Positions 14,686-58,500 of a DNA stretch of 64,000 nucleotides are shown here, in pieces; positions within the stretch are counted from its first letter, which is position 1, and each line of letters begins with the position of its first letter. Source of the DNA: Escherichia coli (GTDB taxonomy: Bacteria; Pseudomonadota; Gammaproteobacteria; Enterobacterales; Enterobacteriaceae); assembly GCF_003790525.1 (NCBI RefSeq), contig NZ_CP033635.1. One strand, written 5' to 3'. A program made the position numbers and the translations under genes. The notes under the pieces are model-generated. The model was not told the DNA's origin, made no database searches, and worked only from the letters and a program-made list of their open reading frames with translations.

Positions 14686-17073
<2,388 letters not shown>

Positions 17074-18409: not shown

Positions 18410-19273
18410 TTATTCAATGTTCTGAATCTGCTCGCGCATCTGCTCAATCAACACTTTCAGCTCAATCGCGGAGTTTGTCACTTCGGCATTGATAGACTTC
18501 GAAGCAAGAGTGTTCGACTCGCGGTTGAACTCCTGCATCATAAAGTCCAGACGACGGCCAACCGCTTCTTTTTTCTTCAGAATGTTGTAGGTCTCTTTGA
18601 CATGCGCTTCGAGGCGATCCAGTTCTTCGGCAACGTCAATTCGTTGTGCCAGCAGAACCAACTCCTGCTCCAGACGGTTGTTTTCCAGTTGCACCTGAGC
18701 ATCTTCCAGCTTCGCGACCAGACGCTCACGCTGCCATTGCAGGATTTCCGGCATATGGGCGCGGACTTTGACCACTTCGGCGCTGACGCCTTCCAGACGC
18801 TGCTCAATCAACACTTTCAGCGCCTGACCTTCGGTTTCACGTGCGATGATAAAGTCGTCCAGCGTACCATCCAACGCCGCGAGAATTTCAGCGGCAATCG
18901 CGTCGAGATCCTGCTCCTGGGCTGCCATCACGCCCGGCCAGCGTAGAATATCAACCGGATTGATTTCCCCTTCGTCACTCTGCATTTTTACCCAGTTCGC
19001 GGCAGTTACCAGCTGTTTAGCCAGTTTTTCGTTGAGGATCAGCTCACCTTGCGCGCTAACATCTGGCTCATAGCGCAGGGTACATTCCACTTTACCGCGC
19101 GTCAGGCGAGAACGAATACGCTCACGAACGACAGGTTCAAGGCTACGGAACTGCTCCGGCAGACGAAAGTAAGTTTCCAGATAACGCTGGTTTACCGAGC
19201 GCATTTCCCAGGTTGCGCTCCCCCATTCACCCTTGATTTCACGCCGGGCGTAGGCGGTCATACTGCGGATCAT
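18410..19273 (-). CDS. yicC: YicC-family stress-induced protein (endoribonuclease-like)
   Basis: 287 aa MIRSMTAYARREIKGEWGSATWEMRSVNQRYLE. Confidence 0.85.
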   Translation of the reverse strand: MIRSMTAYARREIKGEWGSATWEMRSVNQRYLETYFRLPEQFRSLEPVVRERIRSRLTRGKVECTLRYEPDVSAQGELILNEKLAKQLVTAANWVKMQSDEGEINPVDILRWPGVMAAQEQDLDAIAAEILAALDGTLDDFIIARETEGQALKVLIEQRLEGVSAEVVKVRAHMPEILQWQRERLVAKLEDAQVQLENNRLEQELVLLAQRIDVAEELDRLEAHVKETYNILKKKEAVGRRLDFMMQEFNRESNTLASKSINAEVTNSAIELKVLIEQMREQIQNIE

Positions 19274-19399
19274 AGACGTTCCTGTTTATAAAAGGAGAGG
19301 TGGAAGGATTATAGCCATCGATGCCTTGTCAGGATAGGAATAACCGCCGGAAGTCCGTATAATGCGCAGCCACATTTGTTTCAAGCCGGAGATTTCAAT

Positions 19400-20116
19400 A
19401 TGCGTCCAGCAGGCCGTAGCAATAATCAGGTGCGTCCCGTTACCCTGACTCGTAACTATACAAAACATGCAGAAGGCTCGGTGCTGGTCGAATTTGGCGA
19501 TACCAAAGTATTGTGTACCGCCTCTATTGAAGAAGGCGTGCCGCGCTTCCTGAAAGGTCAGGGCCAGGGCTGGATCACCGCAGAGTACGGCATGCTGCCA
19601 CGTTCTACCCACACCCGTAACGCGCGTGAAGCAGCGAAAGGTAAGCAGGGTGGGCGCACAATGGAAATCCAGCGTCTGATCGCCCGTGCTCTTCGCGCAG
19701 CAGTAGATTTGAAAGCGCTGGGTGAGTTCACTATTACGCTGGACTGCGACGTGCTTCAGGCTGATGGTGGCACGCGTACCGCTTCGATTACGGGTGCCTG
19801 CGTGGCGCTGGCAGATGCGTTACAGAAGCTGGTGGAAAACGGCAAGCTGAAAACCAACCCGATGAAAGGGATGGTAGCCGCGGTTTCTGTCGGGATTGTG
19901 AACGGCGAAGCGGTTTGCGATCTGGAATACGTTGAAGACTCTGCCGCAGAGACCGACATGAACGTAGTGATGACCGAAGACGGGCGCATCATTGAAGTGC
20001 AGGGGACGGCAGAAGGCGAGCCGTTCACCCATGAAGAGCTGCTCACCTTGTTGGCGCTGGCCCGAGGGGGAATCGAATCCATTGTAGCGACGCAGAAGGC
20101 GGCGCTGGCAAACTGA
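19400..20116 (+). CDS. rph: ribonuclease PH (full-length form)
   Basis: 238 aa from [14 protein letters not shown] ending [12 protein letters not shown]-track start 19376 is an upstream extension. Confidence 0.9.
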
Positions 20117-20122
20117 TTTTTA

Positions 20123-20150
20123 AGGCGACTGATGAGTCGCCTTTTTTTTG
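20123..20150 (+). terminator. pyrE attenuator hairpin in the rph-pyrE intercistronic leader
   Basis: AGGCGACT-gatg-AGTCGCCT hairpin followed by TTTTTTTT, 30 bp upstream of pyrE. Confidence 0.7.
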
Positions 20151-20181
20151 TCTGTAGAAAAGTAAGATGAGGAGCGAAGGC

Positions 20182-20823
20182 ATGAAACTATATCAGCGCC
20201 AGTTTATTGAATTTGCGCTTAGCAAGCAGGTGTTAAAGTTTGGCGAGTTTACGCTGAAATCCGGGCGCAAAAGCCCCTATTTCTTCAACGCCGGGCTGTT
20301 TAATACCGGGCGCGATCTGGCACTGTTAGGCCGTTTTTACGCTGAAGCATTGGTGGATTCCGGCATTGAGTTCGATCTGCTGTTTGGCCCTGCTTACAAA
20401 GGGATCCCGATTGCCACCACAACTGCCGTGGCGATGGCGGAGCATCATGACCTGGACCTGCCGTACTGCTTTAACCGCAAAGAAGCAAAAGACCACGGTG
20501 AAGGCGGCAATCTGGTTGGTAGCGCGTTACAAGGACGCGTAATGCTGGTGGATGATGTGATCACCGCCGGAACGGCGATTCGCGAGTCGATGGAAATTAT
20601 TCAGGCCAATGGCGCGACGCTTGCTGGCGTATTGATTTCGCTCGATCGTCAGGAACGGGGGCGCGGCGAGATTTCGGCAATTCAGGAAGTTGAGCGTGAT
20701 TACAACTGCAAAGTGATCTCTATCATCACCCTGAAAGACCTGATTGCTTACCTCGAAGAGAAGCCAGAAATGGCGGAACATCTGGCGGCGGTTAAGGCCT
20801 ACCGCGAAGAGTTTGGCGTTTAA
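20182..20823 (+). CDS. pyrE: orotate phosphoribosyltransferase
   Basis: 213 aa from [36 protein letters not shown]. Confidence 0.9.
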
Positions 20824-27724: not shown

Positions 27725-27773
27725 AGTGCGGTATCAGTATTCAGGTAGCTGTTGAGCCTGGGGCGGTAGCGTG
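27725..27773 (+). promoter_or_regulatory. JUMPstart element with ops (RfaH recruitment) site in the waaQ leader
   Basis: CAGTGCGGTATCAGTATTCAGGTAGCTGTTGAGCCTGGGGCGGTAGCGTG; ops core GGCGGTAGCGTG at 27762-27773. Confidence 0.75.
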
Positions 27774-55502: not shown

Positions 55503-58500
55503 TTACCACTGAATACCGGCACCGAGTGCGGCGGAGTATTCACCCTGGCTATTGGTACTACCTTGTAATTTGTAGACCCAACGACCATTGGCGCTCACCA
55601 TCGACACACCTAAAGCAACAGCCGATTCACCGTTGTAAGTACCACCACCAATAGAGGCCATGCTGGCTCCCGGCGTGTAAGCCTGCGGCAGACCGGTCAT
55701 TGCCATTGCGGAAGCGATACCACCGCTCAACTTGCTTTCGGTTTTGGACAGTTTGTTATCCATCTCAACCATGCGCTGATCGGTGTATTGCTTCGTTTCC
55801 TGCACACTTTGCTTCAGCTGCGCATAGTTCACCGCGTCGTTGTTGTTCACGCCAGCAGAAACGTTGCTGATGCGAGTCGTACCGCCATTTCCGCCACCGA
55901 GAGTGATGTTGCTGTAGTCGATAGAGCCATCAGCTTTGGTGTCGTAGCGAACGCCGCCTGCTTCAGAAGACTTCAGTTGTGAAACGTTAACCGCATCGGT
56001 GGCATTAACACCGGCAGCAACGTTGGTGATACGGCGCTGGTTGGTAGAAGAACCCACAGAGATGGTGTTTTCTTCGTTGGCCACGGAACCGGTACCCAGC
56101 GCGACGCTGTTGTCAGCGGCAGCAATGGAACCAGAACCAATTGCAACACTGTCTTTACCCTGCGCGTTGGCATCTACGCCATCGGTGTTGGTCTTGAAGT
56201 ATTTGGTGCTACCGGTGGTTACGATATCGCCAATGCCGTTTTCGATATTGGTCACGCGAGTATCCAGATTCGTCACCTGATTGTTCAGGTTAGTAATGCT
56301 CTGGGTATTCTGGGAAACCTGCGCGTCCGTTACTTTCAACTGACCCACGTTAACCGCATCGGTATCCGCTGAACCAGCCGCGACGTTGGTGATCTGACGT
56401 TGACCGTCTTCACTGCCGACAGAGAACTCACCCACAGAGTTCTGTGGTGCGTCCATGTTGTAGGCGCTGTAGTTGGTCTGCGCACCACGGGTAGTCTGAG
56501 AACCATTCCCCATTGCAATGCTGTTTGCATGGTTTGCACTTGCGTTGCTACCGATAGCAATACCATTGATCGCATCAGCCAGAACTAAAGTGTTCAGGCC
56601 GATACCAATACCCGCATTACCATTAACGATGGTTTTTGCGCCCATTGCCAGCGAGTCTTCACCGACTGCCAGTGAGTCTTCTGCCGTTGAGTTGGCGTGA
56701 TAGTACTTGGTTGGCGTAGTGGCGACCGCGCCAATAGCGTTTTGCAACTGGCGAACCGTAACGGCGTCATGGGCTTCGGAACCATCGGCTACGTTGATGA
56801 TTTGACGATATTTACCATCGTCACCGATCGACAATGCGCCAAGCAGTTCACCATCAGTTGTGTCATAACCAATCACAACACCTTCTTCCGACACGCTGGT
56901 GTCACGAGAACCTTTAACTATTAAACGGCTGGAAACGGAACTGCTACCCAGGGCGATACCCGTCTCAACTTCGCTGCGGCTGTCCTGACCAATGGCTACG
57001 CTGCTGGCTTTGGAAGCAACAGAGTTATAACCCACTGCTGTAGCGCCAACACCCTGTGCGCTGGCATCGGTGAAGGTTAAACCGGTGTCATTGGTACGCA
57101 CATAGTTAATACCTGCACCATTTTCTTCGATGTAGGTTTCACTGGTGTTACCAGCAAGCTGATTAATGACTTCGCTGTTCTGCTGGATCAGCATATTGGT
57201 GTTAAACAGCTGAGAACCGTTGATAGCATCGGTGCTGCCTTCCCCGATATTACCATCAGCGACATTAGTGATGATGCTGGCTTTGCCATCATGACTGGCG
57301 TTGTAAGCCCCTTCGCCGTTATTGGCTGTCGCATCCCACAGCAACGCGTTCTCATCAAGCGCATCCAGAGCTTCACCGACGTTGTTGTAATCGGTATTTG
57401 CAATGGTGTAAGTCGGCGCAGTGATAGTGCCGTCAGCGTTGACTTCTGCGTTACCGCCCAGCGCATCAGCGATGTACTTATTGGTGGTATAGAGTTGTGA
57501 GCCGTTAATCGCGTCGCTGCTGGTGGCAGAGATTGCACCATTTGCGACGTTAGTAATCTTACTGGCGGTGTTATCTACCCCGCGACCGGCGCTGAATGCA
57601 CCAGCACCGTCATTGGCTGTCGCATCCCAGAGCAGGGCATCACCGAGAGAATCACTAAATGAAGTGTTAATTGCGGCCAGAGCATCCCCGACGTTAGTGT
57701 AGTCAGTGCCGCCAATACTATAGGTTGGCCCGGTTAATACACCTGTATCGCTAATATCAGCACCACCACCCAGATAGGACGTGAATGAATCAGCCAAACC
57801 ATATAGTTGTGAGCCATTTATGGCGTCAGTGCTGTCAGAGGAGACTATGCCAGCTTGTACGTTGCTGATTTTGTTGGTGGCGTTAGTACCGTGTGCAGCG
57901 GTGAATGCGCCTGCGGCGTCGTCCCATTTCAGGGCGTCTTCACCGAGATTATTCACCGTATCAGTCAGGTTAGTGATATTGGTGGTGTTAGTGGCGATAT
58001 TGGTGGTGTTGGTCGCCACGTTATCGTTGGTGGTTTTCAGCTGGGAGCCGTTAACCGCGTCAGTGCTGCCAGCAGTCAGGTCGCCAGCGGTGACGTTGGT
58101 GATTTTGCTGGTGGCATCGGTGCCGTGCGCGGCGCTGAATGCGCCAGCCGCTTTGTTCCACAGCAGGGAATCATCACCAAGACTGTCAACAGCGTTAGTC
58201 AGGTTGGTGATATTGGTGGTGTTAGTGGCGATATTGGTGGTGTTGGTCGCCACGTTATCGTTGGTGGTTTTCAGCTGAGAACCGTTGACGGCGTCGGTGC
58301 TGCCAGCAGTCAGGTCGCCAGCGGTGACGTTGGTGATTTTGCTGGTGGCATCGGTGCCGTGCGCGGCGCTGAATGCGCCAGCCGCTTTGTTCCACAGCAG
58401 GGAATCATCACCGAGACTGTCAACAGCGTTAGTCAGGTTGGTGATATTGGTGGTGTTAGTGGCGATATTGGTGGTGTTGGTCGCCACGTTATCGTTGGTG

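Follow-up and report, generated by a model that had tools for sequence, protein, structure and literature searches.

An Escherichia coli sequence of non-K-12 type with a full-length rph gene and a pyrE attenuator identical to that of K-12

The closest described relative of the locus reported here is the Escherichia coli K-12 rph-pyrE operon, in which expression of pyrE is tied to translation of the gene ahead of it. Work by Bonekamp in 1984 and by Andersen, Poulsen and Jensen in 1992 is said to have shown experimentally, in K-12, both the attenuation between the two genes and their dicistronic mRNA. Studies by Bonekamp in 1984 and by Poulsen and Jensen in 1987 reportedly found that read-through of the K-12 attenuator goes up when the UTP pool goes down, with a dependence on translation at the rph 3' end. 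In the sections of PMC2784333 that treat this operon, attenuation is likewise described as tied to translation, and a stop codon moved nearer the loop restores regulation (PMC2784333, citing Bonekamp 1984 and Jensen 1993). The same sections state that a 1-bp deletion in rph-pyrE lowers OPRTase (PMC2784333, citing Bonekamp 1984 and Jensen 1993). EMG2, MG1655 and W3110 have the rph-1 allele in common, and WG1 is without it (PMC9997739).

We analyzed a 64-kb stretch of E. coli DNA (64,000 nucleotides, hereafter the window) that contains, between positions 19274 and 20860, two genes on the + strand, rph followed by pyrE. The divergent yicC gene lies upstream of the pair and the convergent slmA gene lies downstream. 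This region is almost certainly the wild-type, bicistronic rph-pyrE operon of a non-K-12 E. coli, with a UTP-sensitive attenuator between rph and pyrE. The coordinates of its features are collected in Table 1.

Table 1 Features of the rph-pyrE locus, in window coordinates
Feature	Position	Strand	Basis or remark
Perfect TATAAT, candidate -10 of the rph-pyrE operon promoter	19358..19363	+	36 nt upstream of rph ATG
GGAG ribosome-binding site of rph	19388..19391	+	8 nt before ATG, read from sequence
rph, full-length RNase PH, 238 aa + TGA (239 codons)	19400..20116	+	translation, family model
Direct repeat GCAGAAGGCG (10 bp), copy 1	20009..20018	+	
GGGGG run, rph-1 site	20066..20070	+	pairwise alignment; MG1655 has GGGG
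TAG, premature stop of rph-1 strains, out of frame in the window	20085..20087	+	34 nt before hairpin; MG1655 end ...ARGESNPL*
Direct repeat GCAGAAGGCG (10 bp), copy 2	20092..20101	+	
rph stop codon TGA	20114..20116	+	5 nt ahead of first hairpin-stem base
pyrE attenuator: 9-bp stem, GATG loop, T8	20122..20149	+	terminator scan, fold, identity with MG1655
GAGGAG ribosome-binding site of pyrE	20169..20174	+	7 nt before ATG, read from sequence
pyrE, orotate phosphoribosyltransferase, 213 aa	20182..20823	+	TIGR00336; annotated pyrE in SMS-3-5

The product of rph in the window is a complete RNase PH by comparison with both a family model and a solved structure. Against the NCBIfam equivalog model TIGR01966 (RNasePH; curated cut-off 141.5 bits), the protein scores 380.8 bits (E = 1.9e-114), its residues 2-236 covering the model end to end (positions 1-235 of 236). 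When Rph is aligned with the solved structure of RNase PH from Pseudomonas aeruginosa (PDB 1R6L), its residues 2-237 pair with residues 3-238 there, and the C-terminus is therefore normal. The corresponding protein in strain SMS-3-5 is annotated as WP_001247093.1. Upstream, the 126-nt spacer between yicC and rph is identical in the window and MG1655. The perfect TATAAT in this region is a candidate for the -10 element of the rph-pyrE promoter; the sigma-70 promoter scan upstream of rph called no promoter, because the best -35 candidate for this hexamer is weak, with a match at only 3 of 6 positions. Antisense open reading frames at 19286-19612 and 19756-20082, about 108 aa in length and wholly opposite rph, were set aside as chance frames.

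We compared this locus with that of MG1655 (NC_000913.3), in which rph is annotated as "truncated RNase PH". Over 921 aligned nucleotides, the sole length difference between the two sequences is one G that is absent from MG1655; across this site the window reads CCCGAGGGGGAATCG and MG1655 reads CCCGAGGGGAATCG. The one-G deletion seen in MG1655 is the rph-1 lesion of the literature. In MG1655, the frame shifts after ...LALARG and ends in ...ESNPL*, giving a protein of 228 aa, as against 238 aa in the window, that covers only positions 1-221 of the TIGR01966 model. The marks of rph-1 (one G:C lost, a 228-aa product and an early TAG) are all missing from the window, where the frame stays open to the TGA at 20114. 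An earlier note on this DNA had proposed that MG1655 and W3110 carry the truncating rph-1 frameshift and that the window does not belong to their lineage. Alignment of the rph 3' ends, the comparison on which that note had staked its proposal, agrees on both counts: the single-G deletion is present in MG1655, with W3110, BW25113, J53 and HMS174 all exact matches to the rph-1 sequence, and the fifth G is kept in the window. Apart from the G, the two genes of the window differ from those of MG1655 by 30 substitutions, 15 in each of rph and pyrE, of which two change the Rph protein (V138A and I216T, from MG1655 to the window).

After the rph TGA, the sequence continues with TTTTT, the hairpin AAGGCGACT-GATG-AGTCGCCTT (20122-20143, with 20122-20130 paired to 20135-20143) and a run of eight T at 20142-20149. 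The terminator scan calls an intrinsic terminator at this site, with 9 base pairs, 5 of them G-C. When the 34-nt element is folded alone, its energy is -14.7 kcal/mol compared with -3.5 +/- 1.8 kcal/mol for shuffled sequences (z = -6.16; none of the 200 shuffles is as good), and a wider fold of 82 nt (20100-20181) is unremarkable (z = -1.22), the signal being confined to the hairpin. The spacer between rph and pyrE is identical to that of MG1655, and thus to the characterized K-12 attenuator, at 65 of 65 positions. Across the species, 4557 of the 5424 complete genomes show at least 99% identity over the 113 nt that surround the attenuator. A permissive Rfam scan of 19200-20400 returned nothing at gathering score, and Rfam holds no pyrE attenuator family; the best hits, to RyhB (24.5 bits) and STnc240 (23.4 bits), each with a threshold of 55, were rejected, as both overlie the hairpin and match the hairpin alone. 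Taken with the open rph frame from the ATG at 19400 to the TGA ending at 20116, the terminator call, the fold and the spacer identity bear out what the earlier note had said of a full-length, 238-aa Rph followed by the attenuator hairpin and T-tract ahead of pyrE; the positions it gave, 19400 and 20182, are exact to the base and mark the A of the rph and pyrE start codons.

Variation at the attenuator is found in a few other genomes. Rare variants occur in AR_0114 and Z1324PEC0010 (L005, L006), one lacking a C from the hairpin's 3' arm and the other with T9 in place of T8. In strain 23CRST050 (NZ_AP045825.1, 2561-3304), an IS200/IS605 transposase gene has been inserted between the two genes of the operon, immediately behind the T-tract.

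The way in which this operon would operate can be proposed by combining the window's sequence, frames, geometry, hairpin stability and K-12 identity with UTP dependence, ribosome occlusion and polarity on pyrE taken from the literature, in which the regulatory behavior was characterized in K-12; the window strain is known from its sequence. Transcription from upstream of rph would reach pyrE only if the hairpin fails to form, and the hairpin would fail when a ribosome on the end of rph trails RNA polymerase closely. Following the K-12 work, low UTP would slow the polymerase, leaving the ribosome close behind it and permitting read-through into pyrE. The footprint of a ribosome extends some 12-15 nt downstream of the A-site codon. 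With just 5 nt between stop codon and stem, a ribosome at the TGA at 20114 would cover the 5' arm of the hairpin (20122-20130) and could block hairpin formation if it is near the polymerase. In rph-1 strains, the frameshift would free ribosomes 29 nt further upstream, so that the hairpin would always form, termination would be high and pyrE would be under-expressed, and such a cell would be partly starved for pyrimidine. As the frame is intact and the attenuator unaltered in the window, we expect translation to be coupled, and pyrE to be regulated, in the normal way in this strain.

The second gene of the operon matches NCBIfam TIGR00336 over the whole model (positions 1-173 of 173), with a score of 240.7 bits (E = 7.4e-72) against a curated cut-off of 106.8 bits. 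From MG1655 to the window, PyrE carries the substitutions P3L (window 20188-20190) and L85M (window 20434-20436). The first of these sits just behind the start codon: codon 3 is CTA (Leu) in the SMS-3-5 clade versus CCA (Pro) in MG1655. CTA is a rare leucine codon in E. coli. Most other genomes are one base different from the 113-nt query around the attenuator, and this base is presumably the C/T difference in pyrE codon 3. We think it very unlikely that the CTA of the SMS-3-5 clade alters translation initiation or early elongation of pyrE; if it did, OPRTase output could be reset downstream of an otherwise invariant attenuator.

To place the window among sequenced E. coli, we compared it with complete genomes. 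The 1601-nt rph-pyrE stretch is carried without change by 22 of them, namely SMS-3-5 plus 21 further isolates of human, chicken, dog and water origin, and is 95-99% identical in 5401 others. Over its full 64 kb, the window matches SMS-3-5 (NC_010498.1, 4009971-4073970, reverse strand) with 0 substitutions and one 1-nt gap. The exact rph-1 sequence, represented by a 71-nt probe from MG1655 that spans the deletion, is found in 168 of 5426 complete genomes, a count of the K-12-type rph-1 sequence, with independent frameshifts on other backgrounds outside the reach of the probe; matches of any kind were returned from 2989 genomes only, as megablast requires a 28-nt exact word. Among the 60 of these 168 exact matches that are listed, which include MG1655, W3110, BW25113, J53 and HMS174, all look like K-12 laboratory derivatives, the remainder by their size and source. 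Since exact rph-1 occurs in 168 of 5426 genomes and the listed examples are all laboratory strains, an intact rph is the norm for the species.

The non-exact matches to the rph-1 probe, as far as they are listed, each span 72 nt and thus carry the extra G, and K-12 DH10B is among them. In that genome (NC_010473.1, 3911464-3911535), the five-G, rph+ state is found within flanks that are otherwise of K-12 type. As DH10B is rph+, rph-1 is a marker for no more than a part of the K-12 pedigree, which agrees with what is reported of WG1 (PMC9997739). The existence of such rph+ branches means that the intact frame, taken by itself, rules out no more of K-12 than the MG1655/W3110 branch, the one that carries rph-1.

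A window from an rph+ K-12 strain has therefore to be weighed, whether a natural one (the DH10B, WG1 or NCM3722 branches) or a repaired or evolved derivative of MG1655. DH10B has the 72-nt state, WG1 is without rph-1 and true rph-1 revertants have been made (PMC5933015), so the frame itself is open to this reading. The pattern of substitutions relative to MG1655, 15 of them in rph and another 15 in pyrE, already refutes it, however. Also against it are the full identity of the rph-pyrE stretch to SMS-3-5 and 21 other non-laboratory isolates, compared with 95-99% for most E. coli, the 64-kb match to SMS-3-5 without mismatches, and the presence in the window of genes known from the SMS-3-5 annotation, a YadA-like adhesin and a sugar-isomerase/PTS cluster among them. 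We give a K-12 origin next to no chance. This sequence evidence places the window outside K-12, which as a whole is excluded by the substitutions and the 64-kb identity with SMS-3-5 rather than by the frame. An equally minute probability attaches to the idea that the run of five G is a homopolymer-length error of assembly and that the real strain is frameshifted in rph. The window does hold one homopolymer discrepancy elsewhere, in ligB (G5 versus G6), but five G are also found in the SMS-3-5 RefSeq sequence and in every non-exact probe match listed (the 72-nt spans), and the 15-residue Rph C-terminus that results can be followed to its last residues in the alignments with the RNase PH model and 1R6L.

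It is also conceivable that the hairpin is a plain terminator of rph, with pyrE expressed independently from its own promoter and the rph frame irrelevant to it. Judged by sequence alone, the element is an ordinary strong intrinsic terminator, and read-through is not something that a sequence makes visible. Only 32 nt separate the T-tract from the pyrE ATG, however, and the promoter scan found no promoter-like site between rph, or its T-tract, and pyrE. The spacer is moreover the same as that of K-12, where attenuation and a dicistronic mRNA were demonstrated. According to the portions of PMC2784333 and PMC5933015 that deal with compensatory mutations, those that recur in MG1655 map exactly to the rph-pyrE attenuator region. 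A plain terminator is thus very improbable, and we retain the attenuated, bicistronic operon as the reading of this locus, a reading that no feature of the sequence contradicts.

The rph-1 site is flanked by two copies of the direct repeat GCAGAAGGCG, which lie 83 nt apart in the window versus 82 nt in MG1655 because of the extra G. These copies are given, in the part of PMC2784333 on laboratory evolution, as the end points of an 82-bp rph-pyrE deletion that recurs under selection in MG1655. Repair of the rph-1 defect is seen again and again in evolved lines of MG1655, for example through the 82-bp deletion, which puts the stop codon back beside the loop, as described in the corresponding parts of PMC2784333 and PMC5933015. 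In the window, a deletion between the GCAGAAGGCG copies would take out 83 bp.

Several features outside the operon were recorded in the same window. The ligB gene (+ strand, 14772-16459) has five G at 15356-15360 versus six in NC_010498.1, which is the sole difference over the 64 kb. The change from G6 to G5 splits the 562-aa frame into open reading frames of 197 aa (14772-15365) and 355 aa (15392-16459), a lesion of the same kind as rph-1 in a different gene. None of the 5420 complete E. coli genomes that match this region has an exact match across the G5 site (best 99.7%, with one gap), and the 30 matches listed all have one extra base. The G5 run may reflect a true pseudogene, an error in sequencing the homopolymer or an edit. 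At 27735-27773 (+) lies a JUMPstart element (Rfam RF01707; 55.2 bits, with a gathering score of 35). It is upstream of rfaQ (waaQ) and shares its strand, rfaQ being the first gene of a same-strand run of lipopolysaccharide core genes. This placement, ahead of an RfaH-dependent operon as before rfaQ (waaQ), is what we take to be the usual position of the element. A tandem repeat at 57859-58691 (unit 234 bp, 3.6 copies, 88% match, with nested 21- and 42-bp repeats) sits in a gene of 4.65 kb whose product is a YadA-like family protein by the SMS-3-5 annotation.

The rph-pyrE state of the window is already known, ordinary and typical of the species, at a locus described between 1984 and 1993. Its intact form serves as a lineage marker, pointing to a natural non-K-12 E. 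coli with an RNase PH of active length, and it is MG1655 that is the exception. The window has the same gene order (yicC, rph-pyrE, slmA) as the wild-type E. coli operon described by Poulsen, Bonekamp, Andersen and Jensen (1984-1993). Both spacers, with the hairpin, the T8 run and both ribosome-binding sites, are those of K-12, and the distance from stop codon to hairpin is that of the wild-type operon, from which the window differs by synonymous or conservative polymorphisms only (A138 and T216 in Rph, L3 and M85 in PyrE). E. coli SMS-3-5 has rph and pyrE identical to those of the window and differs from it by one more G in ligB (window 15356-15360). The rph-1 allele of K-12 MG1655, W3110, EMG2 and BW25113 occupies the same locus with the same attenuator sequence; the window instead keeps the fifth G, and translation of rph stops 5 nt ahead of the hairpin, compared with 34 nt for rph-1.
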